Shown here piece by piece: positions 5,485 to 28,238 of a stretch of 64,000 bases of DNA; the first letter of the stretch is position 1; each line of letters opens with the position of its first letter. The stretch lies in assembly GCA_964608605.1 (NCBI GenBank), contig CAZSOS010000002.1, positions 105,569 to 169,568 of the forward strand. The letters run 5' to 3'. Both the position numbers and the translations under genes were made by a program. The notes below the pieces were generated by a model. It saw nothing but the letters and a program-made list of their open reading frames with translations, was not told the origin of the DNA and made no database searches. Origin of the DNA: an uncultured Candidatus Saccharibacteria bacterium (GTDB taxonomy: Bacteria; Patescibacteriota; Minisyncoccia; Phycocordibacterales; UBA918).

Positions 5485-5493
5485 AGGTATGAT

Positions 5494-5519: not shown

Positions 5520-5538
5520 AATCCATAGATGATCGTCT

Positions 5539-5862: not shown

Positions 5863-5867
5863 CCAGC

Positions 5868-7094: not shown

Positions 7095-7110
7095 AAGATC
7101 ATTCCTCCTC

Positions 7111-8085: not shown

Positions 8086-8089
8086 CCGG

Positions 8090-8590
8090 ATGCGGGAAAT
8101 ATCTCCGATAGAAAAACAAGCCACCGCGCTCACCAGGTGGGTAGGCTCTCCGGCTTCGATCGTCACCCACACGATCGTGTTCGCGCTGTCTTTTGCCCTA
8201 GCTTTTTTCGGCCTCATCACCTTCGACCGGATGCTCTTGGTGCTCACCACTATAGTCTCCCTGGAGGCTATCTACCTGGCCATCTTCATCCAGATGACAG
8301 TGAACCGCCAGAGCGAAGCCATCGCCGAGGTGGAACAGGACCTCGATGAGATCCAGGAAGACATGGGCGAGATCCAAGAGGACCTCGATGAGATCGGCGA
8401 GGACGTGGAAGAGCTTCAGGAAGACGTGGAGGAGCTGGGAGAAGACGTCGAGGAGATCAGCGAGGATGTCGAGGACCTGGGTGAGGACAAGGCCGAGGAG
8501 AAGCGCAAACGCGAGCAGAAAGAAACGCTCCAGAACATCCATGACATGATGCAGAAGCTGGCGGCGGACATCGAGGAGTTGAGGAAATAG
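8090..8590 (+). CDS. Two-TM membrane protein with a C-terminal acidic nonapeptide repeat tail (DUF1003-like)
   Basis: Two hydrophobic helices, then about six repeats of E[DE][LV][DEG]E[IL][QGS]ED, encoded by imperfect 27-bp tandem repeats at 8330-8490. ATG at 8090 is preferred over the GTG at 8072. Confidence 0.6.
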   Translation: MREISPIEKQATALTRWVGSPASIVTHTIVFALSFALAFFGLITFDRMLLVLTTIVSLEAIYLAIFIQMTVNRQSEAIAEVEQDLDEIQEDMGEIQEDLDEIGEDVEELQEDVEELGEDVEEISEDVEDLGEDKAEEKRKREQKETLQNIHDMMQKLAADIEELRK

Positions 8591-8723
8591 GTAACGAGGG
8601 TGAAGGGTTTAGGGTAGAGGGTTGAGAGGGCGGCGGAGGCTTCGCCTCCGCCGCCCTCTATCTAGTTGCAATTTCCCCCAAACCCGCTATCGTAGCCGCA
8701 AATCAACCTGTTCTTTGGAGGAC

Positions 8724-9008
8724 ATGATGTCTGGATTTTTCTCGTCTTTAGCGATTCGGGTCATCCCCTATCCGAAGCGGATGCCTAAATTCATAAATGA
8801 AGCGCTCAGCTATTGGTGGTTCTACCACAACACTCTGAGTGGCGCGCAAAAGTATCATGACCGGCGCCTCAAAGAGCTGGACCCCGCGTACCGACTCAGA
8901 GAAGCGCAGCATGACTTGGTATGGCAACGTGAAGTCGCCCGCAAGAACGGTATCGGGCCGGACAGCCCTGATTACCCCACTCTCGACACTGAAGAGTTGT
9001 TGCGCTAG
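8724..9008 (+). CDS. Hypothetical protein (94 aa)
   Basis: GGAGGA precedes ATGATG, and the gene is followed by a strong terminator. No recognisable motif. Confidence 0.45.
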   Translation: MMSGFFSSLAIRVIPYPKRMPKFINEALSYWWFYHNTLSGAQKYHDRRLKELDPAYRLREAQHDLVWQREVARKNGIGPDSPDYPTLDTEELLR

Positions 9009-9013
9009 CGCAA

Positions 9014-9063
9014 GCCCCGCCGACAAAACGCCCCGCGTTTTGTCGGCGGGGCGTTTTGTTTTC
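9014..9063. terminator. Rho-independent terminator
   Basis: GCCCCGCCGACAAAACG...CGTTTTGTCGGCGGGGC stem followed by TTTTGTTTT. Confidence 0.65.
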
Positions 9064-9355
9064 CTTCCTTACTCAAGAAAGTAAGGTGCTTCGTTTACCA
9101 GTTGACCATCATCCACGTATCTTTCCATATGGAGAGATACGTGGATGGATTTAATGAGCCGGCTTGTTATGGTTATCTGAACGCAGGCGTGGCGAAGCGG
9201 GGCATTTTGTTATTAATTTCAAAGTTCCAAGTTGCGATAAGACGTTATTTTCGAACAAGGTGGCGAGACTGGACTGAGGCGCGCGTGGGAGCCGTATTTT
9301 ACATACGGTGACGAGCGCGCCGAAGGAAGTCCGTCAGATTGACGAAAATTACGTC

Positions 9356-11035: not shown

Positions 11036-11160
11036 AATAAATTTAAAATTTAAATCTCAAAATGAAAACCGGACATTACGTTGGCGAGCCGCCGGGCGGC
11101 AAGCTGCATTTTACATTTTGAAATGTCATTTTGCACTTTGACATTTCAACTTTTCATTCT

Positions 11161-12474
11161 CTAGAAGAGGTCGTCGCTGGTAACGGAGGTCTGACGCTTA
11201 TTGTAGTTTATGCTGCGCTTATCGAAGAAGTCGACGTGCTTGGTGGCGATGACCTCGTCGTTGAACCACTCGGTCTTGTCGAGCATGGCCTCGTCGACCG
11301 AGAAGACGGCCGACATGCCGATGGAGATAAGCGAGTTATTGAGCCGGTGCTTGATGAATTCCTTGATCTCAGCCTTGGGCAGGAAGTCGAGCTCGCCGGT
11401 CTCGAAGATCCAGTCGACGATGGCGCTCTCGGCCTGATAAGCCTCGACGCACATCATGCGCACCGTTTCGCGATGCTCGACGTCGAACCATTCCGGGTGC
11501 TCGGCGCGGATGATGTTGATGATGTCGATGCCGAACATGCCGTGTATCTGCTCCTCCTTCGAGGTAGCTTCCACCGCGTTCGAGATGCCCTTGAAGAGGT
11601 TCTTGTGCTTATTGAAGGACATCATGATCAGGAACTGCGAGAACAGCGATACGTGCTCGATGAAGAGCGAGAAGAGGAGGACCGCCTGCGAGTACTCGCG
11701 CATCTCGCCGGTCTTGGCGAAGGCGTTGACCTTATCGAGGTACTCGACGCGCTTCTTGATGACCGGTACTTCGGTCAGTTTCTTGAACTCGTCGTTGAGG
11801 CCGAGGATCTCCAAGAGATGGGCGTAGGCGTCCATGTGGCGCACCTCGCTCTCGGCGAAGGTGAAGCCGACGGCGCCGACCTCCGGTTTCGGAATGCGCC
11901 CGTAGATATTGCCCCAGAAGCTCTTCACCGCAACCTCGATCTGCGCGATCGCCAGCATGGTCTTCTTGATGGCCTCGCGCTCATGATCGCCCACGCGGGT
12001 CTTGAAGTCGTCGATGTCGCGAGTGTAGTTGAACTCGGTGTGCACCCAGTACGAATGGCGGATGGCGGTAACGTACTCGTAGAGTTCGGGATACTCGTAA
12101 GGCTTCAGGTTGGCGCGCTTGCGGAAAAGGTCGCGTCTCCGGAGACGCTTGCGCTCCGCGCGGTAGATGATGTAAGCCTTGGCGGTCTCGAAGAAAGCGA
12201 GCTCCATGAGGCCGGCCTCCACCAGGTCTTGGATCTCCTCAACCGTCGGGTACCCATCGACGCATTTGCCGAAGTGATGGTCTCCCGGCTCGGCAGTGGC
12301 GGCCCCCACGCACATGGCGACGATCTTTTCATGCACTAGCTTAGCCACGCGCGCGGCCTCGGCCGCGCTTCCCTCCCCCGTCTCGCCAAAGGCCTTCAAG
12401 ACGGCGGCTTCTATCTTCTCGATCTTGAAGTCGACGACGGAACCGTCGCGTTTACGAATCTGAACGATCTCCAT
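11161..12474 (-). CDS. nrdB: Ribonucleotide reductase beta (R2) subunit carrying an N-terminal ATP-cone domain
   Basis: The N-terminus MEIVQIRKRDGSVVDFKIEKIEAAVLKAF... is an ATP-cone signature. It is followed by a ferritin-like di-iron R2 core (ESEVRHMDAY, FIEHVSLFSQF). Start chosen at the ATG at 12474. Confidence 0.85.
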   Translation of the reverse strand: MEIVQIRKRDGSVVDFKIEKIEAAVLKAFGETGEGSAAEAARVAKLVHEKIVAMCVGAATAEPGDHHFGKCVDGYPTVEEIQDLVEAGLMELAFFETAKAYIIYRAERKRLRRRDLFRKRANLKPYEYPELYEYVTAIRHSYWVHTEFNYTRDIDDFKTRVGDHEREAIKKTMLAIAQIEVAVKSFWGNIYGRIPKPEVGAVGFTFAESEVRHMDAYAHLLEILGLNDEFKKLTEVPVIKKRVEYLDKVNAFAKTGEMREYSQAVLLFSLFIEHVSLFSQFLIMMSFNKHKNLFKGISNAVEATSKEEQIHGMFGIDIINIIRAEHPEWFDVEHRETVRMMCVEAYQAESAIVDWIFETGELDFLPKAEIKEFIKHRLNNSLISIGMSAVFSVDEAMLDKTEWFNDEVIATKHVDFFDKRSINYNKRQTSVTSDDLF

Positions 12475-12701
12475 ATGCATGTAATTACTACGCCTGATAA
12501 ACAAAACCGCTTTCGCGGACACTGGTCTGCTCATATATACTCGCGCGCAAAGCCAATCGGGCAATACGGAATTGGATCTACGAACGAACTAGTGAACCTC
12601 CACGCGAAGATCGATGTCTTCGCGTACGCTAATGATAGCATCATCGGTCTTTTGCCCTTTTCGACACGAAAATGACCGGTAGACAAAAAAGCGGAAAATA
12701 A

Positions 12702-12734
12702 AGGGCGGTTTGGCCTCCGGCCAAACCGCCCTTT
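12702..12734. terminator. Hairpin terminator downstream of mscL
   Basis: GGGCGGTTTGGCC-TCCG-GCCAAACCGCCC followed by a T-run. Confidence 0.6.
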
Positions 12735-12805
12735 CCGAGTTATCCACAATCTCTTTCCCCGATCCGCACCAGCAATCATGTTTGCCAAAACGGCAAACTC
12801 CGAAT

Positions 12806-13213
12806 CTACCTCTTTAAGGAATCGCGGATCTCGCGCAAGAGCTTCACCTCCTCGGTCGGCTCGACGACCTTCTGCGACTCGGGCTTCGCTTCCTCCTTGC
12901 GTTCGAGGGAACGCAGGACCTTGATGGCCACGAAGATCGACCAGGCGATGATCAGGAAGTCGATGACGGACTGCAGGAACACCCCGTAAGTGACGGTGGC
13001 GTCGCCCACGGACACGGATAAGCCCTTGAAGTCGATGCCGCCGGTCACCACCCCGAAAAGCGGCATGATGATGTTGTCGACCAGCGACGAGACGATCTTG
13101 TTAAAAGCGGTACCGATGACGACCGCCACCGCCAGGTCCAGCACGTTGCCCTTCAGCGCGAAGGCTTTGAATTCCTCCAAAAATCCTTTGGCTTTGTTCT
13201 TATATGGATTCAT
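12806..13213 (-). CDS. mscL: Large-conductance mechanosensitive channel
   Basis: [51 protein letters not shown] is a canonical MscL N-terminus. Confidence 0.9.
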
Positions 13214-13230
13214 AGGATGTCCCTTAATTT

Positions 13231-14367
13231 CTAATGATGATGGGAATGATAATGTCCGCCTGCGGCCTTGTCCACCTCCCGGCCACCGAACCACCAGGCG
13301 GCCAGGGCCGTGGTGAGCGGCACGGCCAAGATGAGGCCGATCGAGCCGACCAGGATGCGCGCCAACTCGGCGGCGATCACTTCCTGATTCAAGGTGAAAT
13401 AAAGCGGCGCGGAGCTGGTCGAAAAGAGCAGCACCAGAGGCAGAGCCGCGCCGACGTACGCCAGCGCCAGCGTGTTGACCAGGCTGCCGACGTGGTCGCG
13501 GCCGACCTTGATGGCCCGCTGGTAGAGATCGAAGGACGAGAGCGCGCTATTGGCGGCCCTAAGTTCGCGCACCACCGAAGCCTGGGTGATGGATATGTCG
13601 TCTAAGACGCCCAGGACGCCGATGATGATGCTACCTAGAAGCAGGCCGGATAGATCGAGTTCGCCGCGAGTGGCGAAGGTGAGATAGACGGAGGCGTCGC
13701 TGCCGTAGCCAGAAAGACGCATGGCGCCCACGAACCACCAAGCCACCGCGCTGGTCGCCAGGACCGCCGCCACGGTACCGCCAAAAGCGATCAAGGAAAC
13801 GGGATTGAATCCATGAGTACCGAAGAGAGCGAGCGCCAGAATGACGCCGGAGATGAGGAGACTCATCAAGATCGGGTCATAGCCCGCCAGCAATGCCGGC
13901 AACAGGACGAAGACGATGCCGATGATACTGAGACACAAAGATCCCAGCGCTCGAACGCCCTGCCAGCCGGCGAACAACAGCAACAGGGCGACGAACAGTG
14001 CTAATAGGACCAAGAGGCCGCTGCCCCTGTCGACATCCTTCAAAAGATAGATCTCCGTGCCGTCGATGTCGCGGATGTGACTGAGGAATATCCGATCACC
14101 TGGTTCCAGCGTCACCAGATCGTTCTCGAACGTGATGACCTCGTTCATCCTCTCTCCCTCCAGCAGCCGCACGCTCACCGTCTGCACCACGGCCGTGGCA
14201 TCGGTGCCCATGATGGGTTTGATCTGCTCATCGAGTATAGCCTCCACCCGGGCGGGGATGATGGCCTGCAGCTCTTCATAGGCCGTCTGGCCGAGCGCCG
14301 GCTGCCCGGAAGCCAGGCTGGATCCGGCGATCGACACCAGCAACAGGACCTTTACTAAAATTTTCAT
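13231..14367 (-). CDS. YibE/F-family integral membrane protein
   Basis: Signal/TM segment plus an extracellular domain, then a multi-TM C-terminal half typical of YibE/F. The C-terminus is His-rich. Confidence 0.75.
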
Positions 14368-14493
14368 CCCCCCACTATATCAAAATCCCGCGGCGGTCCG
14401 GGAAGAAGACCGACCTTGCCAGCGCCCGGTCGTTGACCGCGCGCTAGGATTTTGCTATCTTATTGCAAATTACTGGCGTTAATATCCATCCTC

Positions 14494-15306
14494 ATGTTTG
14501 AAGCTTTGTTAGCGGCGGCGGGAGTGGCGATCTGCTCATTGGTGGGCGTCTTTTTCTTCGGTAATAGCCGCCGGCTCGAAGGAGCGGAACGGTACGTCAT
14601 TCCAGCGGCGGTGGGCGTCTTCCTCTCGCTGGTGCTCTTTGAGCTCATCCCCGAGACCCTAGAAGCAAGTAGCCACTGGGGCGGTATCGCCATCGCGGCT
14701 GGCTTCATCGCTTTTTACGTCCTCTCTTACGAATTGCACCGCTTCTTTCATCGCCGTGACGAAGACGACAAGGATTGCGACCGCAAAGGCGCCGCTACCC
14801 TGCTCCTTGTCGGCGACGCTATCCACAACTTCGCCGACGGCGTCATTCTGGGAGCGGCCTTCCTGATCGATCCGATACTGGGGACCGCGGTCGCCGTCGG
14901 ACTGGCGCTCCACGAGATCCCGCAGGAGATCGTGGAATTCGGGGTCTTGGTGCGCGGCGGCTTCTCTCGGACCCGCGCCGCCCTTCTCAATCTGCTCTCG
15001 GCCTCGAGCATCATGCTGGGCGTCCTGGTGACCATGCTCTTCGCCGCCGCGCTTCAGGAATACGTCTGGATCATGACCGGCATCGCCGCCGGCAACCTGC
15101 TCTACATCGCCGCCAGCGATCTCTTGCCGCGGATTCACGGCACCCTGAGGAACTATCGCAGCTTCTGGTTCACTCTCTTCTCCCTGATCCTAGGTTTCAC
15201 CCTCATGACCTGCGTCCTGGTCTACACTCACGAGACCTTCGGCCATGGACCGCATGATGATCAGGCCGAGCACGAACACGAGGAGGATGAAGATCACGAC
15301 CATTGA
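14494..15306 (+). CDS. ZIP-family zinc/iron transporter (ZupT-like)
   Basis: HNFADG and HEIPQEIVEFGVL motifs are present, with a His/Asp-rich C-terminal tail. Confidence 0.85.
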   Translation: MFEALLAAAGVAICSLVGVFFFGNSRRLEGAERYVIPAAVGVFLSLVLFELIPETLEASSHWGGIAIAAGFIAFYVLSYELHRFFHRRDEDDKDCDRKGAATLLLVGDAIHNFADGVILGAAFLIDPILGTAVAVGLALHEIPQEIVEFGVLVRGGFSRTRAALLNLLSASSIMLGVLVTMLFAAALQEYVWIMTGIAAGNLLYIAASDLLPRIHGTLRNYRSFWFTLFSLILGFTLMTCVLVYTHETFGHGPHDDQAEHEHEEDEDHDH

Positions 15307-15490
15307 TAGGTCTGGATCAGAAAAAGAAGCCGGCCAGATAGAAACCGACGGCCGCGCCCAGCACGAATAGTATCAAGATGGCCAGTTTGCGGCCTTCGTC
15401 GTCCATCGTTCCAGTATAGCGAAAACGCCTCGACTTTTCACCTAAAAATAGGTATAACTTAGCGGCGCGGCTTCGCCGCGCCGCTGCCAT

Positions 15491-15565
15491 GGCGGCTATT
15501 GTATAACGGTTATTACGTCGGTTTGTGGTACCGAAAATCCGGGTTCGATTCCCGGTAGCCGCCCA
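15491..15565 (+). tRNA. tRNA-His (anticodon GTG) with encoded G-1
   Basis: Hand-folded cloverleaf. 8-bp acceptor including G-1:C73. Anticodon loop TTGTGGT. T-arm CCGGG/TTCGATT/CCCGG. Confidence 0.8.
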
Positions 15566-15672
15566 GATGACCAGCCGGATACGCGTACGCGTTCCGGCTG
15601 TTGTCATATGTGGCCGTTACCTATCCCCGGAACTGTTTTAGACCATGAAGACCTTGGGATATAATTTCCCAT

Positions 15673-16191
15673 ATGCCAGAAACTCAAAAGAAAAATGCTT
15701 CATTCTTCTCCCTCCTCATACCCGCCAACGCCGATCGCCATCTGTTCGAAGGGCATGTCAATAACGTCTGTTCGGTATTGGACGCGCAGATACCCGGCTC
15801 CTACGAGATCGTGGCCGTCGAAGCCGGACAAGACAACCCTACGAACGACTGGGACAACGTCAAGGGCGAAGTGCTGGTCATCATCGACGGCAACCTGGAA
15901 TGCGCGCCCACCACGCTCTGCGAGGTCATCACCGCTTTCCAGGATGGATCGGACATGGCCTTCGCCGGACAATACCGCGATGGCGGCCGCGGCAGCAACG
16001 ACCCTGAGCTCAGCTACTTCGGCATCCGCCGCTCTTCCCTATCGCGGCTTCATGAATCGCCGGAAGGACACCGCCTGATCCTGGAGATACTGGGACCGGA
16101 GACCATCAAGAAGCTGGGCACCGCGCCGCGGGAAGTGTCCGGCAATTACATCCTCAAACACCTGCGCAAGATGATCGGCGTGCAGGAGTAG
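15673..16191 (+). CDS. Glycosyltransferase family 2-like protein with degenerate catalytic motifs
   Basis: FSLLIPANAD...YEIVAVEAGQD...VIIDGNLE parallels GT2/DPM1 motifs, but the DxD is replaced by DGN and part of the nucleotide-binding region is missing. Confidence 0.45.
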   Translation: MPETQKKNASFFSLLIPANADRHLFEGHVNNVCSVLDAQIPGSYEIVAVEAGQDNPTNDWDNVKGEVLVIIDGNLECAPTTLCEVITAFQDGSDMAFAGQYRDGGRGSNDPELSYFGIRRSSLSRLHESPEGHRLILEILGPETIKKLGTAPREVSGNYILKHLRKMIGVQE

Positions 16192-16225
16192 CAAGATGGC
16201 GGCCCTTCGGGCCGCCATCTTGCTA
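16192..16225. terminator. Hairpin terminator
   Basis: GCAAGATGGCGGCCC-TTCG-GGCCGCCATCTTGC. Confidence 0.6.
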
Positions 16226-16243
16226 CTATCTATGTGCCCAGGA

Positions 16244-16326
16244 GAGGACTTGAACCTCCACACCTTTCGGCATATCCACCTCAAGGATACGTGTATACCA
16301 ATTTCACCACCTGGGCCTATGGCTTC
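16244..16326 (-). tRNA. tRNA-Leu (anticodon GAG), type II with long variable arm
   Basis: Acceptor GCCCAGG/CCTGGGC. Anticodon loop TTGAGGT. 15-nt variable arm. Confidence 0.85.
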
Positions 16327-16375
16327 TCGTGAAGCTCCACGATTGTACGCAACATTCCTACTATTTTCAAGCTAA

Positions 16376-16408
16376 CGAAAGCGGGCGGCCCTTTGGGCCG
16401 CCCGCTTT
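16376..16408. terminator. Hairpin terminator downstream of rplS (variant of the hairpin family)
   Basis: GAAAGCGGGCGGCCC-TTTG-GGCCGCCCGCTTTC. Confidence 0.6.
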
Positions 16409-16418
16409 CCATGTCGAT

Positions 16419-16976
16419 TTAATCCTTCTTCTCTTCTACGGCTTCAGGAGCGGTCTCGTTTCCCGCCTCTGGCGCGGCGGCTTCAGCGGCCTTGGCTGCC
16501 TCGGCGGCCTTCAAAGCTTCCTCCTCCGCCTTCTTAGCAGCCTCTTCCGCGGCCTTGGCTTCCTGCTCGGCGCGAGCGGAAGCTTCGATCTCGGACTCGG
16601 TACCGAACGATACCATGGTCATGCGGCGCATCTGGCGCTTGATCTCGCGGGCCACCTTCTCGCGGATGAAGTAGAGCTTGGAACGGCGCACCTTAGAACG
16701 CTTGACGATCTCGATCTTGTCGATCAGGGGCGAGTAGAGCGGGAAGATCTTCTCCACGCCCACTCCGGAGGCCACTTTGCGGACCGTGAAAGTGGCTCCC
16801 GGCTCATCGCCATGCTTGCGGGCCAGCACCACGCCCTCGAAGACCTGCAGGCGGGTCTTGCCCTTCTCTTCGATCTTCTGGTGCACGCGAACAGTGTCGC
16901 CCGGACGAATGCCGAGGGTCTTGCGGTCGGCCATGTTGACCGGAGAGATGTTGATGCCGTTGAGGGTGGAATTCAT
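16419..16976 (-). CDS. rplS: 50S ribosomal protein L19 with an Ala/Glu/Lys-rich C-terminal extension
   Basis: L19 core ([33 protein letters not shown]) plus a roughly 60-aa low-complexity tail. Confidence 0.95.
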
Positions 16977-17765: not shown

Positions 17766-18038
17766 TCAATGACGGATGGAAAAATCGTCGTGAACGGTCT
17801 TGATCGAACGCCATTCGACCGCCACCGCCTCGACCTTGGAAAGCAACGATCCCTCATGGAGGTGCTCGACGAACTCCTTGAGCACGGTCGGATCGGCCTG
17901 CGCCACGATCTCGACCGTGCCGTCAGGCAAGTTGCGGGCATAGCCGGTCACGCCCAGTTGGTCGGCCGCGGCCTCGACGTAGGCTCGATAGGCCACCGCC
18001 TGGACCTTGCCGGACACGATGCAATACATCTCTACCAT
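17766..18038 (-). CDS. acyP: Acylphosphatase
   Basis: 90 aa. VSGKVQAVAYRAYV matches the VxGxVQGVxFR motif family, and NLPDGTVEI is present. Confidence 0.85.
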   Translation of the reverse strand: MVEMYCIVSGKVQAVAYRAYVEAAADQLGVTGYARNLPDGTVEIVAQADPTVLKEFVEHLHEGSLLSKVEAVAVEWRSIKTVHDDFSIRH

Positions 18039-18105
18039 GACTCGAAGTATAATCCATCCTAAATATAAAACCGAGAGCTTTGACCACTCTCGGTTTCATA
18101 TCATG

Positions 18106-18179
18106 TGGGCGCTGAGGGATTCGAACCCCCGACCCTCTAGGTGTAAGCTAGATGCTCTAACCAACTGAGCTAAGCGCCC
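18106..18179 (-). tRNA. tRNA-Val (anticodon TAC)
   Basis: Acceptor GGGCGCT/AGCGCCC. D-arm GCTCAGTTGGTTAGAGC. Anticodon loop CTTACAC. A hairpin plus T-run terminator lies immediately downstream on the minus strand (18071-18096). Confidence 0.85.
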
Positions 18180-18367
18180 CTCCTGCCGCCACATACTACC
18201 TGTTTTCAAGGATTTTTCAACACGTGGAAAATCTGTTAGGGTTAGGGGCGAGGAAGATTCCTCGCCCTTGTAAGAAACTTCTTCTTCGCTCTCCCCTGTA
18301 TGAGTAATTCATACAGGACCAGCGTTCGGAACCAAAATGTAAGCCAGCTTTCATTTGTTCCTCACTT

Positions 18368-18439
18368 GCCCCTGTAGTTAAATGGATATAACTGCGGACT
18401 TCTAAGCCGTTATTCTTGGTTCGATTCCAAGCGGGGGCA
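18368..18439 (+). tRNA. tRNA-Arg (anticodon TCT)
   Basis: Acceptor GCCCCTG/CGGGGGC with one GU pair. Anticodon loop CTTCTAA. T-arm CTTGG/TTCGATT/CCAAG. There is one A:G mismatch closing the anticodon stem. Confidence 0.75.
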
Positions 18440-18535
18440 CAAGTTAATGCTAGGATGAGCGACCGAAGAGAATCGTAGAATCGGCAACAAAACCACTCTT
18501 CGAGTGGTTTTGTTGCGTCATATCAAAGCCGGTAG

Positions 18536-19312
18536 CTACTCGACACGAATCGACTCGTAGAACGCAGAGCACCAAGGTTCCCTGGCGCCGGGACAGCCTG
18601 TAAACTTGTATGTATACTGAGAACCTTCAAGAAAAAATCCGTAATCTCCCATGTGTGACCTCTCCGCGCACTCGATGCCAGAAATATGATCATTGATTGA
18701 CTTCTCTTTACATTCGCCTTCTGCAAAACTTGCCGTGAGACTAGCCAGCGAACCGGCAGGAAACAGGATAACGTTATTATGTGCGACACCACCTGACTCC
18801 AAACATCCTTCGGGACAAGGATTAAGAGTCCCAAACACAATCGTGCCCACCCCAAATTCCTCTGTCCGATCATAGGGTGTCAACTGATAATATGGCGCAC
18901 CCCATCCAGCATTGTACGGCACTTGCATAGAAAGACCGTCCGCATAATATGGCACGAGCATATAAGGGGAATTTTCATCTTCTGCCCGATAAAGACGAGG
19001 TCTGTCTTCTTTCGAAATGCCAAAGCGCTCCATCAACTCAAGCTCGCGCGCCTCAAGCGCAGAGCGGGAGAATATCGGTCTAGACACCGAAAATGTTTGT
19101 ACGCTTTCCGTAGTCTGTGATGACTCTACCTCCAAGGGAAGCGCTCCCTCTTCAGAGATAGAAAGCGGAGAAGCGTACCAATATCCAAGGGAAAACCCTA
19201 CAAACGGCAAAACAACGAGGAGCGCGAGCGTAAGGTACTTAGAGAGTGGCGTAACGCGATTCCACCAAGGTGTTTCGGCTACGCTGGTCGAATCCATGTT
19301 TTCTGAGTCCAT
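18536..19312 (-). CDS. Hypothetical membrane-anchored Cys-containing protein, in a lower-GC stretch
   Basis: N-terminal TM segment. No recognisable domain. Local GC is visibly lower than the surroundings. Confidence 0.45.
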   Translation of the reverse strand: MDSENMDSTSVAETPWWNRVTPLSKYLTLALLVVLPFVGFSLGYWYASPLSISEEGALPLEVESSQTTESVQTFSVSRPIFSRSALEARELELMERFGISKEDRPRLYRAEDENSPYMLVPYYADGLSMQVPYNAGWGAPYYQLTPYDRTEEFGVGTIVFGTLNPCPEGCLESGGVAHNNVILFPAGSLASLTASFAEGECKEKSINDHISGIECAERSHMGDYGFFLEGSQYTYKFTGCPGAREPWCSAFYESIRVE

Positions 19313-19464
19313 GACGCCATGATGTCACACAATAGATAAAAAATTAAAGACGATGTGTGGATTCTGTCTTTATGTTCTGACTGAAAGAGTTCTTAGCGTT
19401 ATCATGGAATCATTTGGAAGAGGGCGTCGCCTACACAGTATCGAGACCGAACAGGGGCATATAG

Positions 19465-19809
19465 CTAATCGGTCGCTTGGTCGATTTCTATATCGGGAGT
19501 GATCAAAGACATGCCTTTGAGGATAAGCTCGGCCCGGGTCGCCCTTTCTTCGTACTCGCGCCAGATCTCCTGTACTTTTGTCGAATCGTAAAGAGACTCC
19601 TCGGCCTCAACCTGCGACAGCTGGCTCTCCATGTCGCTCCAATAATAGAACCGGTAGGCGGCATAACCGGCGGCGGCCACGATCAAGAGCAGGCCGACAA
19701 CCAAAATCATCGCCCAGCCCGTGAGGATCGAGCTAGCAGCGTTGCCAAAGGCCGCCCGGCGGCGGCCGATGTCTTTTATCCTGGAAAAGATGTCGGAAGG
19801 AACGCGCAT
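19465..19809 (-). CDS. Small single-TM protein at the end of the pilMNO cluster (PilP-like position)
   Basis: TM segment plus an acidic coiled region. Called on position only. Confidence 0.35.
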   Translation of the reverse strand: MRVPSDIFSRIKDIGRRRAAFGNAASSILTGWAMILVVGLLLIVAAAGYAAYRFYYWSDMESQLSQVEAEESLYDSTKVQEIWREYEERATRAELILKGMSLITPDIEIDQATD

Positions 19810-22020: not shown

Positions 22021-22369
22021 ATTTTATCTTCGTTCCCGCCGGTAACGACACGGACGGATACAAGAGCGCGAATGCTTCCTCGGTGCTGGCCGCCAAGATC
22101 ATGCCTTGGCTTTCGATACCACGGATGACGCGCGGCTCCAGATTGGTCAAGAACGGACATTGCCTTCCCACCAATACCTGCGGATCCTCGAAGTAGGTTC
22201 GGATGCCGGAGACGATCTGCCGCGGCCGACTCTCCCCTGTCTCGTCCTTTTCGCCGACGTCCACGGATAGACGGAGCAGCTTATCGGCGCCTTCGACTAT
22301 CTCCACCGACAGGATGGTACCTATCTTGATCTCCAGCTTGGCGAATTCGTCGTAACTGATATTGGTCAT
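22019..22369 (-). CDS. tRNA-binding domain protein (CsaA/Trbp111/MetG C-terminal-like)
   Basis: FAKLEIKIGTILSVEIVEGADKLLRLSVDVGE is the OB-fold tRNA-binding signature. Confidence 0.8.
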   Translation of the reverse strand: MTNISYDEFAKLEIKIGTILSVEIVEGADKLLRLSVDVGEKDETGESRPRQIVSGIRTYFEDPQVLVGRQCPFLTNLEPRVIRGIESQGMILAASTEEAFALLYPSVSLPAGTKIK

Positions 22370-22749
22370 TATTTACTTTTGGTTATGAAACTGTTCAAGA
22401 TGATGGCCGCGGCTGAGGCGTCCGTCTGCGCCGTGCGTCCCTGGCCCCGAAGCGCTTCCTGGGTCGAATACTGTTCCGGCTCCAGATGGATCGGCAGACC
22501 GACCCGCAGCGTCAGATCGCCGATCAACTCCTCGACCGCCGCGTGGACCGGATTCGGCCGGCCGTCCCGCCCCAGCGAATGTCCGATGACGATCTCGGCC
22601 ACCTTGCGCTCCTCGATCAGTCTCTCGAGCTCATCGAGCAGTTTGCCATCGTTGTCGAGCACGATATGCGGGAAGGCCATCTGCCCGCCTTCGTCCGAAA
22701 GCGCTATCCCCACTCGCTTGGTGCCATAGTCGATACCCATTAGTCGCAT
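22369..22749 (-). CDS. ruvX: Holliday-junction resolvase-like RNase H-fold protein YqgF/RuvX
   Basis: MRLMGIDYGTKRVGIALSD...is the YqgF N-terminus. Start chosen at the ATG at 22749. Confidence 0.85.
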   Translation of the reverse strand: MRLMGIDYGTKRVGIALSDEGGQMAFPHIVLDNDGKLLDELERLIEERKVAEIVIGHSLGRDGRPNPVHAAVEELIGDLTLRVGLPIHLEPEQYSTQEALRGQGRTAQTDASAAAIILNSFITKSK

Positions 22750-22833
22750 AATATCTCCAGAATATAGCACAGAATCCAAAAATCTTTGGTCTGTTGGTCT
22801 ATTTATTCAAATATGAAATGTTATTATTAACTA

Positions 22834-23292
22834 ATGGGAGCACGTCGTCCAAACTGCGAATGCACTGTCTGCGGCCAACGAATATATAGGAGACCTTTGC
22901 AAATTGAAGGTGGTCAAATTTTTTGTTCGCGCCAGTGTAGCGGTAAACATCAAAGAAAGGTGCGCGTCTGCGAAATTTGTAAGAAGGATTTCTTGGGTAT
23001 AAAGAAAAAATATTGTTCGCGGTCTTGTTCCAATAAATCTCGTACCGGTACAAAGTATAAAATCGGTAAACCGCACGACAAAGCGTTTTTGGTCAACAGT
23101 CTGAAGAAACAACTTGCTGACGCAAGAGGCGGTACATGTGAACGTTGCGGAGAGAAAAACTATGCCATATTACAGATCCACCATAAGCTAGAAAAACACC
23201 GTGGGGGCAACGATAAACCAGAAAATCTTGAATTGCTTTGTCCCAATTGCCATTATTCTAACCACTTTGGCTTTCGTTTGTTCAAGAGCTGA
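22834..23292 (+). CDS. HNH endonuclease with an N-terminal Cys-rich zinc-ribbon region
   Basis: The HNH motif is ILQIHHKLEKHRGGNDKPENLELLCPNCH. There are several CxxC pairs. The gene lies in an AT-rich segment (about 40% GC). Confidence 0.85.
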   Translation: MGARRPNCECTVCGQRIYRRPLQIEGGQIFCSRQCSGKHQRKVRVCEICKKDFLGIKKKYCSRSCSNKSRTGTKYKIGKPHDKAFLVNSLKKQLADARGGTCERCGEKNYAILQIHHKLEKHRGGNDKPENLELLCPNCHYSNHFGFRLFKS

Positions 23293-23320
23293 AATGATGC
23301 TAGAGTGCTCCTTAATAAAC

Positions 23321-23405
23321 GGAAGCGTAGCCAAGCGGTTTAAGGCACTTGTCTTGAAAACAAGCGTATCGAAAGGTACCGTGAGTTCGAATCTCACCGC
23401 TTCCG
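23321..23405 (+). tRNA. tRNA-Ser (anticodon TGA), type II
   Basis: Acceptor GGAAGCG/CGCTTCC. Anticodon loop CTTGAAA. Long variable arm. T-arm GTGAG/TTCGAAT/CTCAC. Confidence 0.85.
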
Positions 23406-23471
23406 CACTAAGAACCTGTTATCGGCATGACCCGAGTACCTAAGTTCGTAGATTTAAGCTAAAATAAGACC

Positions 23472-24251
23472 ATGAACCGAGGCTTTATTCAAATACCAAT
23501 TCTGATCGCCATACTTGCTGGTATAGCGGTATTTGGTGGCGCTGGGTATGTTGCATACGAAGCTAGTCAGAAGTCTTCAGTTCCAGCCGAAGAATCAGTA
23601 ATCGAATCGACTACTGAAGCATCACTTGGAGAATCTGACGACGTTTCCACCACTTCTGCAGTTAAGACAAATAACGATATCATACAGAAAGAAATGCCTG
23701 CGTCACCGAAAGCCATAGTGTCGCCAGTTATTCCTGCAGCCACAGCTCCTTCAACATCTACACCAACGCAGATATCACTTACTGCTCAAATTCAAACACC
23801 GACCTCTACTGCATCGACAACGGCAAGTGCACCTACACCAACCGTTGCGCCAGCAGTTACTCCAACTCCAAAAGTAAAAGTTACCGCAAGTCCTGAAAAT
23901 GTTGAGTATAATGGCACCTCAGTTATTAGTTGGGTTGCCACAGACGCCTTGTCATGCACACTAGGTTCTTCTCCTGTTCTTCTTGCTGTCACAGGCTCTC
24001 ACTCAGTCGAGCCAACTGACCCTGGCGACGACTGGACAAAGACAAATAAGAAAACCTACTCTATTACATGCACTGGTACAGGTGGTTCTGTTTCTGAAGA
24101 TGTCACGGTAACCGTTCAATCCTGGGTACCACCTGCCGGATATAAAGTCTTACCGTATGGCCAATGCACTAGAGCAACAGCACCTTGTATTACAGGACCC
24201 GGTTTTGGCACGATATGTGAATTTGGCGGTGGATGTAGCACCGGTGGCTAA
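23472..24251 (+). CDS. Secreted/surface protein: TM anchor, Ser/Thr/Pro-rich linker, C-terminal Cys-containing beta-sandwich-like module
   Basis: A low-complexity TSTPT linker, then YSITCTGTGGSVSEDVTVTV, the same C-x-G-x-GG module seen in the CTD proteins. Lower GC than the backbone. Confidence 0.55.
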   Translation: MNRGFIQIPILIAILAGIAVFGGAGYVAYEASQKSSVPAEESVIESTTEASLGESDDVSTTSAVKTNNDIIQKEMPASPKAIVSPVIPAATAPSTSTPTQISLTAQIQTPTSTASTTASAPTPTVAPAVTPTPKVKVTASPENVEYNGTSVISWVATDALSCTLGSSPVLLAVTGSHSVEPTDPGDDWTKTNKKTYSITCTGTGGSVSEDVTVTVQSWVPPAGYKVLPYGQCTRATAPCITGPGFGTICEFGGGCSTGG

Positions 24252-24257
24252 ATTGCC

Positions 24258-24740
24258 ATGTCGCTTCCTAGTATCACAATTCAAATATCTGCCGATAGTG
24301 TTGCTTGGTATGGGGCAATAATCGCAACAATTGCGGCGGTGGTTTCAATTTATAATGCTTGGCGTGACCGCTCTCGAATAGCTTTAGAGTTTGGTAAAAA
24401 CTTTCGTCGCGTCGAAGAATGGGATCAAGCGCTCTTCTATATCTCGATTGTGAACCGTGGACGGCGACCTGTAAAAATTGATAAGGCATGGGTGAAACTT
24501 TACGGATATAAAGGAGAGGCCTTAATAGCCGATAGCTTAGGTACACGCTTAGACCGCACACTGGACGAGAGAAATCCAAAAATTACCTTTTGGGCAAAAG
24601 AAAGCACTTTAGATACGAGTCGCATTTATTGCGTTTTTGCCTCAGACGAAACTGGAAGAGTATACAAGAGATACATCACGAATTTCCCAACATTTATGCG
24701 GCTATGGTGGGTCTTTAAAAAGAAAAGTGTAGCAAAGTAA
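24258..24740 (+). CDS. Hypothetical membrane-anchored protein (island gene)
   Basis: N-terminal TM segment. About 42% GC. No motif. Confidence 0.45.
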   Translation: MSLPSITIQISADSVAWYGAIIATIAAVVSIYNAWRDRSRIALEFGKNFRRVEEWDQALFYISIVNRGRRPVKIDKAWVKLYGYKGEALIADSLGTRLDRTLDERNPKITFWAKESTLDTSRIYCVFASDETGRVYKRYITNFPTFMRLWWVFKKKSVAK

Positions 24741-24871
24741 TTTTATTTACCCATGACCCACATGCCTCATTTCAACCTCTGAAAGTTTGCTGAAATACCT
24801 TTATGGTGCCTCACCGCCCTGGTACTGAACCCGAGTAGCCCGCATCGAAGATGTGATCCAGTGCCGTATAA

Positions 24872-25498
24872 TTGTCCATTATGGCCAAACGATCACAGAA
24901 CCTGAACCGGTACTTCCTCCAGGACATCAATCCGGTGGTGCGCTTCCTCATCGTCTCGGAAACGGTGAGCGCCGGCGCGGTCGGACTCCTGGGCCCGATC
25001 TTCGCCCTCTTCATCGATGACTTCATCATCGGCTCGAACGAAGCGGTGGTCGGTCTGGCGGCTGGCATCTTCCTCTTATCGAAGAGTCTCTTCCAGATAC
25101 CGATCGCGCATTACCTGGATCGGATCCGCGGCGAGAAGGATGACTTCTGGTTTCTCTTCGGCTCGACGGTGCTCACCGCCCTCATTCCCCTACTTTATCT
25201 GGTCATCGATACTCCGATGGAACTGTACCTGGTCCAGTTCGCGCTGGGTATCATCACCGCCGCCACCTATCCGTCTTTCATGGCCATCTTGACCCGACAC
25301 ATGGATAAAGGAAAGGAAGGCATGGAATGGGGCATCTATTTCACCCTGACCGACATCTCGAGCGCGGCCTTAGCCATCATCGGCGGCTTCGTGGCCGCCA
25401 CCGCCGGTTTCCCGGCACTCATCACCGCCGTCGTGATCATCTCGCTAATGAGCGCCGTCTTGATGGTACCGATAAGACCGTATCTCAAAAAGAGGTAG
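24872..25498 (+). CDS. Six-TM membrane protein (half-MFS-like)
   Basis: About six hydrophobic helices. A TATAAT sits 9 nt upstream of the ATG, so the transcript may be leaderless. Confidence 0.5.
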   Translation: MSIMAKRSQNLNRYFLQDINPVVRFLIVSETVSAGAVGLLGPIFALFIDDFIIGSNEAVVGLAAGIFLLSKSLFQIPIAHYLDRIRGEKDDFWFLFGSTVLTALIPLLYLVIDTPMELYLVQFALGIITAATYPSFMAILTRHMDKGKEGMEWGIYFTLTDISSAALAIIGGFVAATAGFPALITAVVIISLMSAVLMVPIRPYLKKR

Positions 25499-25592: not shown

Positions 25593-25664
25593 GCTCCCGT
25601 AGTTTAATGGATAGAATGCAGGTTTGCGGTACCTGCGATCCAGGTTCGATTCCTGGCGGGAGCA
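25593..25664 (+). tRNA. tRNA-Arg with apparent anticodon GCG (unusual)
   Basis: Clean cloverleaf: acceptor GCTCCCG/CGGGAGC, anticodon stem CAGGT/ACCTG, loop TTGCGGT, T-arm CCAGG/TTCGATT/CCTGG. Position 34 is G, not the usual A (inosine). Confidence 0.65.
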
Positions 25665-25839
25665 CAAATGGCCGGCGCCGACACGTGAGTGTCGGCGCCG
25701 TTTGCCGACCGCCAGGAATCGAACCCCTTGCCGGGGACCCCTTGGGTCGGCAAGGGGCGGGGTCGCGGCTCGTTACCAGGATCGGAGCGAAGCGAACGAT
25801 TATGGTTACGAGCGGTGACCGGTTCCTGGCGTTCTTTAT

Positions 25840-26714: not shown

Positions 26715-28238
26715 TTAGGTCTCCTGCACGTCCGGCAGCACCTTGACGGTGCGAGTGGCGCTGTCACCGCCGACGCAAGACAAAGTGAAAGTGACCTCTC
26801 CCAGCATCTGATGCGATACCGAACCGGTGCGGCCCGGGAGGGATGACAGGATAGTGGCCGCACCGGCCTTGATGGAACAACGGGCCGGGTCGTTGCTACC
26901 CAATTCCCAGCAGACGGGCACGTTCTCGCCTCTCAATACCAGATTTTTGCGGCACTCCGGCGACATGCTGGCATGATCGAAACTGGCTCCGGCGCCACCG
27001 CGTGTAGAGACGGTAACGCTGTCAGAGGCTTGCGTCGTGCCTTGTCCGTAGCACAGGAGTCCGAACGTGTGGCTGGTGTTGCCTATCGGCTCATCGAGCG
27101 TATTGTCGATGCCGGAGACGGCGTTGCCGGTGGCGAACCCGTAAAGCGGCGGCACGGCGGCGCAGGAAACAGTGTTAGCCGAACCACCTTGATTCCAACC
27201 CAGCTCGATCTGATCGGTAGGGTCGATGGTGAGGCTCTCGCTCCACGCCGTGGTACCGACCTTCCTCACCTGGAGATTGGCGGTCGGAGGCGGGTAGACG
27301 ACGGTCACGCTTTGCGTGGCCCAGTTGGCGGTCTCACCGCCTGGTCCGGCGCATTTGGCGGCGAAATTCCAGACACCGACGGTATCGAGAGTTTGGTAGA
27401 TACCGCTAGTACCACCACTGTTGGTCGATATGTCAGACGACCAACTGCCGCCAGGCGGCTGTCGTTGCAATCGACACGAAGTAGCGGGACCACCCACAGG
27501 TATATTAAGAATTTTATCCGGTCCGTAACTTACTAACACCTGACTGCCTTTCGTTATGGTGGCCGGTGAAACCGTCACCTTCGCTGAAGGCGCGGGAGGC
27601 GGACCGTATCGATATGCTGAAAAAGCCTTGCTGGTCGTCCCCCCAGGACCGGAACAAGTCACGGTATAGGTCATCCAAGAATCGTAAGCTGGCGTGTTCG
27701 CTGTCTGATAACCTGAGGTGGCCCCGTTACTTCCCGGAACGACGAAATTACTGCCCCAACAAGAAGTAGCGTTGTAACCATACCAGTACACTCGGAGACT
27801 TTGATTCCAATTCATGTAACGAGAAGTGGGAGCTTGGGCCCAACTGGCATCGAAGAGGTCGTGTTGAAAATCAATGACCGGAGCAGGAACAACGGGTGGC
27901 GGACAATAATACGTAGTGAAGTACAGCACCGGGGAATCGATGTCCCAGTTCTGCAACTGGGCCCAGCTTGAGGTATTGTGCGGCATGGTCACCGTCTGAG
28001 CCCCACCACAGGAACTTATGCCCCAGGGTCCGCCGGCGCTGGTGACCAAGCTGTAGTTCCAGGACTTGCAGGTGTTATTGACGTAGAAAGTGGCGTACAC
28101 GTAATTGCCGCCGGACACGCAGGATTGGCTGACCGTGAGATAAGGCTGCGGCTCGGCTTGGGCCGGAACCGGGTGTGACAAGGCTAAGACGCAAACGATC
28201 AATAGGAACGAGGCGCGAATGTAAGCGCGAACTGACAT
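26715..28238 (-). CDS. Secreted multi-module protein with a conserved C-terminal domain ending VLPDVQET
   Basis: Signal peptide, then repeated C-x-G-P-GG beta-sandwich-like modules. The last roughly 75 aa are homologous to the C-terminus of the 29928..31009 protein. Confidence 0.7.
   Translation of the reverse strand: MSVRAYIRASFLLIVCVLALSHPVPAQAEPQPYLTVSQSCVSGGNYVYATFYVNNTCKSWNYSLVTSAGGPWGISSCGGAQTVTMPHNTSSWAQLQNWDIDSPVLYFTTYYCPPPVVPAPVIDFQHDLFDASWAQAPTSRYMNWNQSLRVYWYGYNATSCWGSNFVVPGSNGATSGYQTANTPAYDSWMTYTVTCSGPGGTTSKAFSAYRYGPPPAPSAKVTVSPATITKGSQVLVSYGPDKILNIPVGGPATSCRLQRQPPGGSWSSDISTNSGGTSGIYQTLDTVGVWNFAAKCAGPGGETANWATQSVTVVYPPPTANLQVRKVGTTAWSESLTIDPTDQIELGWNQGGSANTVSCAAVPPLYGFATGNAVSGIDNTLDEPIGNTSHTFGLLCYGQGTTQASDSVTVSTRGGAGASFDHASMSPECRKNLVLRGENVPVCWELGSNDPARCSIKAGAATILSSLPGRTGSVSHQMLGEVTFTLSCVGGDSATRTVKVLPDVQET

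Follow-up and report, generated by a model that had tools for sequence, protein, structure and literature searches.

A low-GC island around tRNA-Ser(TGA) in a Patescibacteria genome probably combines a homing-type HNH endonuclease gene with a separate two-gene insert

Endonuclease genes residing among transfer RNA (tRNA) genes have been described in several systems. In bacteriophage T4, the tRNA gene cluster harbours the gene for SegB, a free-standing homing endonuclease of the GIY-YIG type, which recognises the T-psi-C motif of tRNA and of which the open reading frame (ORF) is trimmed by tRNA processing (PMC2330249). HNH-type endonuclease ORFs (F-TflI/II/IV) were reported from tRNA clusters of phage T5, as cited in the same paper, and trimming of the ORF by RNase P-type processing has been proposed for both T4 SegB and the T5 F-Tfl enzymes (PMC2330249). 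HNH genes are also present in the tRNA arrays of mycobacteriophages and Mycobacterium (PMC5966550, PMC6409571), and HNH homing-endonuclease genes lie within group I introns of Patescibacteria tRNA genes, at position 35/36 in the case of tRNA-Asn (PMC13011429). Here we describe a segment of about 2 kb with low G+C content (GC) in a stretch of 64,000 nucleotides (nt) from an uncultured Candidatus Saccharibacteria bacterium (contig CAZSOS010000002.1, positions 105,569 to 169,568; the whole stretch is called the window below). The segment surrounds a gene for tRNA-Ser(TGA), with a gene for an HNH endonuclease (HNH hereafter) immediately 5' of the tRNA and two further ORFs, ORF2 and ORF3, on its 3' side. 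Loci used for comparison are designated by L and a number.

The initial annotation took this segment for the remnant of an integrated element or for a homing-endonuclease insertion. The latter alternative fits HNH well, and the notion of one single integrated element did not stand. We favour, at a probability of roughly 0.68, the interpretation that the island represents two juxtaposed acquisitions around a resident tRNA-Ser(TGA) in a GC-rich Patescibacteria genome, namely a homing-type HNH gene and a separate insert comprising ORF2 and ORF3. The tRNA would be more than a passive integration site for HNH, and the HNH family appears to have tRNA-Ser genes as its specific partner or target.

The HNH protein has more than 250 homologues of ~150-160 amino acids (aa) at 45-66% identity, and 138 clusters were recovered at E <= 1e-10 from a library of 50%-identity representatives. 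The family loci were fetched from metagenomes and IMG/VR and then scanned for tRNAs. Among the 83 members aligned over at least 125 aa, tRNA-Ser was found directly downstream on the same strand in 55, and within 120 nt of HNH in 60; four of the 23 remaining members sit on contigs ending less than 120 nt past the gene. The anticodon of the linked tRNA-Ser is mostly TGA, with a few cases of GGA, GCT or CGA. The other side of HNH is occupied by different genes, RuvX in the window, L002, L008, L011 and L178, DUF5673 in L005-L016 and L045, and another tRNA in array-bearing contigs, and tRNA-Ser is the only constant neighbour of the family. Across the family, the HNH ORF ends 0-48 nt ahead of the tRNA or inside it: the HNH stop codon and the tRNA are 28 nt apart in the window and 11-37 nt apart in the closest clade, and the gap is -10 to -25 nt in a phage-type clade, in which the stop codon lies inside the tRNA. 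Separately, HNH relatives at ~30% identity were found 60-98 nt upstream of tRNA-Gly(GCC), or beside tRNA-Thr, tRNA-Asp, tRNA-Cys or tRNA-Gly(TCC) (L077, L106, L108 and L109; also L103, L061, L054 and L070), which suggests that sister subfamilies may be specialised on other tRNA genes.

The occurrence of HNH is patchy even within the lineage of the window. The comparison with related genomes, which had been proposed together with the initial annotation, revealed that HNH is present in the window, L002 and L178, and absent from L001, L003 and L166. In L001, only 58 nt separate the RuvX start from tRNA-Ser, and this is the spacer that holds HNH in the window; in L166, a DUF5652 gene occupies the same spacer instead of HNH. 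The pairwise identities of HNH and RuvX were barely correlated (Pearson r = 0.22) over the 16 loci sharing RuvX, HNH and tRNA-Ser, a comparison of identities made outside any formal tree reconciliation. For instance, the window and L002 are 87% identical in RuvX and 55% in HNH, and L039 and L041 are 41% identical in RuvX and 77% in HNH. In nearly every locus, HNH has a lower GC than the DNA around it (mean difference -0.07), and the window is the extreme case, with a GC of 0.427 in HNH vs 0.574 around it (-0.15). The closest homologue, that of L178 (66% identity; RuvX 80%), has the same gene neighbourhood, and with a GC of 0.433 it does not deviate from its host, of which the genome has 43% GC. 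An import from a lower-GC relative or a phage is indicated for the window, because its HNH retains a donor-like low GC.

The clearest view of how HNH arrives at a tRNA-Ser gene came from phage-type loci. Contigs L088-L095 look like T4-like cyanophages judging from their gene content; L094, for example, encodes pstS, 6-phosphogluconate dehydrogenase and a tail fibre. In the phage-type loci, HNH is preceded on its 5' side by a promoter, TTGAC-17-TATATT, and then by GGAAGCGTGGCAGAGTCCGGTTTATT, a 26-mer identical to the first 26 nt of tRNA-Ser. We found a 20-mer of this relic, GGAAGCGTGGCAGAGTCCGG, in 83 stretches of viral-contig DNA, 80 of which were classified: the 20-mer heads an intact tRNA-Ser in 75 (73 TGA and 2 GCT), is a relic followed by HNH in four, and lies at a contig end in one. 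The L094 locus has empty alleles in L227 and L182, each with an intact tRNA-Ser, and both flanks are shared; the left flank of L227 is 78% identical to that of L094 over 1.7 kb, and the right flanks of L227 and L182 are 87-88% identical to it. The HNH-bearing allele of L094 comprises nt 1-26 of the resident tRNA-Ser, a hairpin, the HNH ORF and a complete and very different tRNA-Ser(TGA), past which the identity to the empty alleles resumes, so that the replacement junction falls at tRNA position 26/27. The hairpin, located between the tRNA relic and the HNH start codon, is a perfect 8-bp stem (GGTTTATT...AATAAACC) enclosing a second small hairpin (L094 3960-3992; L023 ~3962-3990), and may serve in the processing or regulation of the transcript made from the cassette.

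A comparable, decayed relic may precede HNH in the window, where the upstream sequence reads TTTGGTCTGTTGGTCTATT. The last 11 nt of it, GTTGGTCTATT (22793-22803), are identical to the D-loop/D-stem of the L178 tRNA-Ser (shuffle p ~0.02), and 16 of the 25 nt at 22779-22803 match positions 1-25 of the L178-type tRNA-Ser by manual count. The stretch ends in ..TATT at about nt 25/26, which is the same tRNA position as in the unambiguous 26-nt relic of the phage type, and L178 has kept the motif TTGGTC..TGGTCTATT ahead of its HNH gene, and L002 and L017 have kept part of it. We regard the sequence evidence for a tRNA relic here as suggestive, not proven; the same stretch probably doubles as the promoter and leader region of HNH. 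At the family level, a position-specific scoring matrix (PSSM) of tRNA-Ser nt 1-16 scored the upstream regions of bacterial-type HNH genes above controls (Mann-Whitney p 2e-5). The signal lies 12-28 nt before the HNH start codon, 42% of the bacterial-type loci exceed the 95th percentile of the controls, and the matches are preceded by an extended -10 element, TGGTATACT. A search by nhmmer with a tRNA-Ser profile was too insensitive for relics of 16-25 nt. We rejected the idea that the relic is a duplicate of the downstream tRNA of its own locus, as only 4 of 55 loci gave p <= 0.05; the relic is instead similar to a different, resident-type allele of tRNA-Ser, and its unlikeness to the linked tRNA fits a cassette bringing a heterologous tRNA. 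An intron model, in which the relic is the 5' exon and the downstream tRNA supplies the 3' exon, was likewise rejected because the acceptor strands do not pair in the phage loci.

The presence of an HNH endonuclease 5' of tRNA-Ser(TGA) was borne out by the profile searches. PF01844 matched with 42.2 bits, above the curated cut-off of 21.4 (E 8.9e-11), and PHROG 1271, 'HNH endonuclease', matched residues 7-143 (E 1.5e-19); the tRNA was called by both ARAGORN and Rfam. The zinc-ribbon Cys pairs noticed earlier proved to be conserved zinc ligands. Six Cys pairs are conserved in the protein, and 23 residues are invariant in the family alignment of 45 sequences, including C31, C35, C46, C49, C61, C65, C102, C105, H116, H117, N131, C136, N138, C139, H140 and H144. 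All catalytic residues and zinc ligands of HNH are kept in 45/45 sequences, with C102, C105, C136 and C139 as a Cys4 zinc site. The AlphaFold2 (AF2) model (pLDDT 90) shows small zinc-ribbon modules, two or three in number, together with a long helix and, at the C-terminus, a beta-beta-alpha-metal finger, with strands at 114-117 and 132-135 and a helix at 137-145. Foldseek matched the HNH domain to McrA and to the Gme HNH nickase of Geobacter (probability ~1.0), and a PDB profile search to the En domain of a group II intron maturase, McrA and the HNH of IscB. From the invariant ligands and a modelled fold like that of DNA-cutting HNH enzymes, the protein is predicted to be an active DNA-cutting enzyme. 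The PADLOC match to mREase_IV (E 2.7e-5) covers only residues 59-145, and Foldseek aligns ~64 residues to McrA; compared with McrA-type (type IV) restriction enzymes, the N-terminus is made of zinc ribbons, and the gene adjoins a tRNA gene instead of lying in a defence island. The Pfam scan gave HNH only, and no GIY-YIG domain was found in the protein. No NCBIfam model describes the family, cultured phages in INPHARED contain no close homologue (best match 34% identity over 57% of the length), and an exact-sequence look-up of the HNH and RuvX proteins, with their listed starts, returned no record. The ORF is free-standing between RuvX and an intact tRNA-Ser, and no Rfam intron matched it.

The tRNA-Ser(TGA) itself is syntenic with RuvX in L001, L002, L166 and L178, and belongs to the backbone, not to the cargo, because it adjoins RuvX in these loci. 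In an alignment of 40 distinct tRNA-Ser(TGA) genes, the acceptor and T arms of the window gene are identical to those of the HNH-less L001, and the D arm and the variable arm differ. A putative promoter ahead of it consists of a -35 element, TTGTTC (23278-23283), a 17-nt spacer and an extended -10 element, TGcTAGAGT (23298-23306). In the closest clade (L002, L005-L016 and L178), TGnTAtAGT is kept 10-30 nt 5' of tRNA-Ser, and TTGTAY is kept within the final HNH codons, so the tRNA promoter of this clade seems to be built into the last codons of HNH. The empty site of L001 has a promoter-like sequence, TTGGTA-17-TGATAGTAT, ahead of tRNA-Ser. A generic promoter/terminator scan was uninformative, and did not list the putative promoter of the window.

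We propose the following course of events for HNH. The protein would be a free-standing homing-type endonuclease of a family specialised on tRNA-Ser genes, and the HNH ORF together with the tRNA-Ser directly downstream would form a cassette, the two moving together. The nuclease would cut HNH-less alleles of tRNA-Ser close to where the D arm meets the anticodon stem, and recombinational repair from an HNH-bearing donor would install both HNH and its tRNA-Ser. The resident promoter and the first 26 nt would stay behind as the relic, now heading the HNH transcript, and the cassette would supply a sequence-divergent, functional tRNA-Ser replacing the resident one from about position 27. A differing D-arm region would make the linked tRNA immune to cutting. 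Nuclease expression would be kept low by transcription in common with the tRNA and by RNase P; in the phage type, where the ORF extends into the tRNA, processing by this enzyme would take away the stop codon of HNH. A more far-reaching version, to which we give slightly less than an even chance, is that of a self-contained two-part mobile cassette of a nuclease and a cut-resistant replacement tRNA-Ser, which invades at the D-arm/anticodon-stem junction, captures the promoter and the first 26 nt, and moves between viruses and Patescibacteria chromosomes. Such a homing element, and we put this equally tentatively, would 'heal' an essential RNA gene by its own copy, not by splicing, and sister subfamilies may do likewise at the genes of tRNA-Gly, tRNA-Thr, tRNA-Asp and tRNA-Cys.

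ORF2 and ORF3, on the 3' side of the tRNA, would constitute a separate insert of 1.4 kb carrying two unrelated accessory membrane-protein genes and beginning 24 nt past the tRNA. The segment is delimited by a 9-bp direct repeat, ACCCGAGTA, the longest word common to both spacers (shuffle p 0.023), of which the copies coincide with GC steps from 0.53 to 0.35 at ~23440 and from 0.40 to 0.57 between 24780 and 24840; the pair fits a target-site duplication or the core of an attachment (att) site. A direct repeat of the 3' end of tRNA-Ser, the search for which had been suggested for the right border, was found nowhere in the window: the last 21 nt of the tRNA have no second copy in the 64 kb at up to three mismatches, a repeat scan agrees, and the only repeat is the 9-bp one. 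The two genes had been described as anchored orphans. An N-terminal hydrophobic helix is indeed present in both, and their orphan status fell away, with 26 homologues for ORF2 and 30 for ORF3, mostly on Patescibacteria-type contigs. ORF2 consists of the membrane helix, a low-complexity linker rich in Ser, Thr, Pro and Ala, and a C-terminal domain with Cys residues, of a type that recurs as repeats in large surface proteins of Patescibacteria; its homologues reach 65% identity, some being labelled Parcubacteria and Paceibacterota, and a weak similarity (E 0.02) connects it with the repeat domain of the 507-aa surface protein at 26715-28238. ORF3 bears an invariant N-x-G-R-R motif, and a fold search retrieved only generic Ig-like or pilin-like sandwiches. 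Neither ORF matched Pfam, PHROG, PADLOC or NCBIfam. A conserved ORF2/ORF3 operon was rejected, as the genes ahead of ORF3 in other loci encode proteins without relationship to ORF2.

Within the lineage, insertions are frequent in the 3' flank of this tRNA-Ser, which is a hot spot for them, and ORF2-ORF3 is probably a remnant or a minimal product of insertion there. In L166 (region 4274-16495), tRNA-Ser(TGA) is followed by a low-GC element of >11 kb that encodes a helix-turn-helix (HTH) protein, an ORF3 homologue (75% identical), a serine recombinase of the large type, a restriction-modification (RM) enzyme of the MmeI type and the large subunit of a terminase, which makes it a candidate Patescibacteria prophage or integrative element. 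The window has no integrase gene, and a serine recombinase was found only in the relative L166. ORF3 is an accessory gene of variable, mobile and defence regions. A homologue is the second gene after tRNA-Ser(GCT) in L168, and those of L171, L175 and L176 occur in other contexts. Another of 180 aa lies in L172 (5437-15258) between a Bro-N protein and HsdS within a type I RM operon that also holds a Shedu-like SduA_C protein and Mrr, which hints at a link of the ORF3 family to defence islands.

The drop of GC over the island was confirmed, with its borders refined. In 300-nt windows, GC is 0.39-0.48 over ~22650/22800-24750 and 0.55-0.63 in both flanks, and the better borders are ~22750 on the left and ~24830 on the right; at 1 kb resolution, the tract is the deepest GC trough of the 64 kb. 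The foreign composition was equally evident from the GC at third codon positions (GC3): among 61 non-overlapping ORFs of at least 100 aa (median 0.734, standard deviation 0.12), the three lowest values belong to HNH (0.405), ORF2 (0.308) and ORF3 (0.379). The flanking RuvX, tRNA_bind, PilM, MFS, DUF5673 and rpsT genes have GC3 of 0.70-0.83. The features of the island and its borders are compiled in Table 1.

Table 1. Features of the low-GC island and its immediate flanks (positions in the window)
Feature	Position	Strand	Basis or remark
RuvX/YqgF gene, backbone left flank	22369..22749	-	Pfam RuvX E 2.8e-24; GC3 0.756
Possible decayed relic of resident tRNA-Ser 5' part (~positions 1-25)	22779..22803	+	inferred
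HNH endonuclease gene, 152 aa	22834..23292	+	Pfam PF01844; N-terminal zinc-ribbon modules and C-terminal HNH
Putative tRNA-Ser promoter, overlaps HNH ORF end	23278..23306	+	sequence inference
tRNA-Ser(TGA)	23321-23406	+	ARAGORN; Rfam 62 bits; complete, uninterrupted
Left copy of 9-bp direct repeat ACCCGAGTA	23430..23438	+	left GC step, 24 nt after tRNA
ORF2, 259 aa, N-terminal membrane helix	23472..24251	+	GC3 0.308
ORF3, 160 aa, N-terminal membrane helix, Ig-like beta-sandwich	24258..24740	+	GC3 0.379
Right copy of 9-bp direct repeat ACCCGAGTA	24829..24837	+	right GC step
Half-size MFS transporter ORF, backbone right flank	24872..25498	+	Pfam MFS_1; GC3 0.789

Other histories of the island need to be weighed against two separate acquisitions. 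HNH, the 5' part of tRNA-Ser, ORF2 and ORF3 (2 kb) might have been imported together from one low-GC Patescibacteria donor, either by homologous recombination or in a long co-conversion tract begun by an HNH cut. Such a single event would account for the similarly low GC3 (0.31-0.41) of all three genes and for a tRNA-Ser of which the D and variable arms are unlike those of the nearest relatives and the acceptor and T arms identical, and homing endonucleases do co-convert flanking markers, as SegB does (PMC2330249). We nevertheless consider it unlikely, as ORF2 and ORF3 lie downstream in none of the sampled HNH loci, the ORF2-ORF3 segment has its own direct repeat at the GC steps, and ~30 nt of higher-GC sequence intervene between the tRNA and the insert. 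A classical genomic island, integrated by an integrase at the 3' end of tRNA-Ser and decayed to HNH, ORF2 and ORF3, would be supported by the L166 element, which follows the same tRNA-Ser(TGA) and has an ORF3 homologue together with genes for a large serine recombinase, a terminase and RM, as well as by the foreign composition and the short direct repeat around ORF2-ORF3. At best it accounts for ORF2-ORF3 only: HNH lies 5' of the tRNA, and recurs there island-free, without ORF2 or ORF3, in L002, L178 and dozens of loci, which also speaks against the segment being one element; the window contains neither an integrase or integrase fragment nor a repeat of the tRNA 3' end; and the tRNA is intact and syntenic with RuvX. 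For the island as a whole we therefore hold this scenario to be doubtful.

Two further explanations concern the role of HNH itself. It could be a domesticated cellular factor, i.e., a partner of tRNA-Ser that is passed on vertically and has a housekeeping or regulatory role, for example in processing, in the control of transcription or in repair at the locus, with a low GC that stems from amino-acid composition and low expression, not from mobility. The strong conservation with 23 invariant residues, the fixed position, the overlap of the tRNA promoter with HNH in the closest clade and the tracking of host GC by HNH GC (slope ~1, r 0.84) are all in line with this possibility. Its absence from the close relatives L001, L003 and L166, the incongruence with RuvX, a GC3 that is 0.30-0.40 under that of the window neighbours, and the occurrence of the same family in cyanophage-like contigs with a demonstrable replacement of the resident tRNA-Ser render it improbable. 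It is even harder to conceive, and very improbable in our view, that HNH cleaves tRNA-Ser molecules as an RNA toxin, with the linked tRNA-Ser being the resistant replacement. The strict pairing with a sequence-divergent copy of tRNA-Ser would be explained by such a toxin-antidote system, for which phage tRNAs evading anticodon nucleases offer an analogy. The nearest matches of HNH (McrA, the En domain of a group II intron, IscB and a nicking HNH) cut DNA, however, and a replacement junction at the DNA level inside the gene is what a DNA endonuclease predicts; we know of no tRNase with the fold of the HNH protein.

Several points weigh against the two-acquisition interpretation that we prefer. 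HNH occupies the same site in many Patescibacteria with RuvX or DUF5673 synteny, and part of the pattern is therefore accounted for by a long residence under vertical inheritance, with losses now and then; weak selection on a gene of low expression could be one cause of its low GC. The loci were chosen by the presence of HNH, and the occupancy rests on ~6 independently sampled loci. The clean pair of filled and empty alleles comes from phage-like contigs, outside the lineage of the window, and the relic in the window depends on an 11-nt match (p ~0.02) to the tRNA of a relative, not to its own tRNA, relics being generally unlike the downstream tRNA of the same locus. The linkage to tRNA-Ser, the presence or absence of HNH, the relic, the incongruence with RuvX and the composition are direct observations, and the target and cutting specificity of HNH, the direction of its transfer and the control of its expression are deduced from sequence comparison. 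As for the second acquisition, the 9-bp repeat was noticed post hoc and its significance is modest, ORF2 and ORF3 do not recur as a pair (the protein encoded after an ORF2 homologue is unrelated to ORF3), and no recombinase domain was found in HNH, ORF2 and ORF3, the only ORFs in 22750-24870.

The chromosomal setting of the island is that of a Patescibacteria backbone. The neighbouring genes of the window include those for PilM/N, a tRNA-binding protein, RuvX, rpsT and large surface proteins with repeat domains, and relatives retrieved via PilM carry the labels Patescibacteria or Paceibacterota. RuvX is 80-87% identical to its counterparts in L002, L001 and L178, each of which starts with MRLMGIDYG, so that the start in the window is likely the ATG at 22747-22749 rather than the TTG further upstream at 22779. 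The major facilitator superfamily (MFS) ORF on the right encodes 208 aa that match only positions 4-176 of the 347 positions of the MFS_1 profile, i.e., the N-terminal half. No second half of the transporter was found within the 64 kb window, and the ORF is either a truncated gene or a half-size transporter, of native composition (GC3 0.79). The interval from tRNA-Ser to tRNA-Arg(GCG)/DUF5673, which holds ORF2, ORF3 and the half-size MFS gene in the window, differs by relative: it is empty in L003, ~450 nt long in L002, contains Lnt and an acyltransferase in L001, and accommodates the >11 kb element in L166. In the window, tRNA-Arg(GCG) (25593-25665, +) and a conserved element of 43 nt (25790-25831) are inverted relative to the DUF5673-like gene; the tRNA comes after DUF5673 on the same strand in L001, L002, L003 and L009. 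This arrangement indicates a local inversion or rearrangement in the inter-tRNA region of the window.

Further observations were made near other tRNA genes of the window and its relatives. Another low-GC patch (0.46-0.50) at 18000-19500 adjoins tRNA-Val(TAC) (18105-18179, -) and tRNA-Arg(TCT) (18368-18440, +), and contains an ORF of 258 aa (18536-19312, -) with the fourth lowest GC3 of the window (0.479), for which we detected no Pfam match and no homologue in L001-L004; this patch may be a further tRNA-adjacent acquisition. L001 (8181-8242) and L002 (8668-8729) share a conserved non-coding stretch of ~60 nt 3' of tRNA-Ser with 74% identity, which belongs to no Rfam family and is not present in the window. 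L002 (Patescibacteria UBA918) also has a 169-nt repeat in two 85% identical copies (8349-8513 and 13127-13289), which adjoin tRNA-Arg(GCG) and tRNA-Arg(TCT). The repeat contains an internal inverted repeat, has no Rfam match, and could be an element resembling a miniature inverted-repeat transposable element (MITE) or a tRNA-flank element. Around the island and in L001-L003, Rfam searches at gathering and E-value thresholds gave only tRNAs.

The main value of these data lies in the family-wide linkage of HNH to tRNA-Ser, combined with the evidence from filled and empty alleles for the replacement of a resident tRNA gene, from which a concrete prediction follows: cleavage near position 26/27 of tRNA-Ser. 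If our interpretation is correct, a small family of nucleases repeatedly rewrites an essential tRNA gene in T4-like cyanophages and in reduced episymbiotic bacteria. It would provide a concrete mechanism by which tRNA genes are replaced horizontally and a mechanism by which the tRNA arrays of phages diversify, a possible marker for exchanges of DNA in which Patescibacteria take part, and natural endonucleases with long recognition sites in the shape of tRNA genes. For annotation, it would mean that low-GC 'islands' by tRNA genes are not automatically islands of the integrase type.

Islands of the latter type resemble the ORF2-ORF3 segment in that foreign DNA lies directly 3' of a tRNA with a short flanking direct repeat. 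They differ from it because the segment has no integrase gene, its repeat lies outside the tRNA, and the insert is only 1.4 kb; HNH, in addition, is on the wrong side of the tRNA for such an island. The HNH genes in tRNA introns of Patescibacteria (PMC13011429) share the phylum, the nuclease superfamily and the tRNA-gene home with the HNH of the window, which, unlike them, is an ORF outside a complete tRNA-Ser and without an Rfam intron match. The HNH ORFs of the T5 F-Tfl enzymes and the mycobacterial arrays lie inside tRNA clusters, and a role in spreading or reshuffling tRNA genes has been proposed for them; these reports describe a general association with arrays, not a one-to-one cassette of HNH and tRNA-Ser or a copy by a single chromosomal tRNA. 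Our full-text searches of the searchable literature library retrieved no report in which an HNH family is linked one-to-one to tRNA-Ser, shows such a relic/replacement architecture, or lies beside single chromosomal tRNA genes of Patescibacteria.

The closest functional parallel is T4 SegB. Like members of the HNH family, it is a free-standing nuclease among tRNA genes that is present or absent in related genomes. It recognises a motif of tRNA genes and drags neighbouring tRNA genes along, and the ends of its ORF overlap tRNA processing signals, which probably limits its expression (PMC2330249). The resemblance is functional and not homologous, as SegB belongs to the GIY-YIG enzymes and the present family consists of HNH enzymes with zinc ribbons. 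The activity of SegB is proven, and that of the HNH family is predicted. SegB is known only in T-even phages, whereas the HNH family spans Patescibacteria chromosomes and cyanophage-like contigs, and, unlike SegB, it is tied to one tRNA identity, serine, and leaves a 5' relic of the tRNA gene that it invaded. Homing endonucleases in phage tRNA clusters are already known, with SegB as the exemplar, and we read the HNH family linked to tRNA-Ser as a variant of them that appears to be new.

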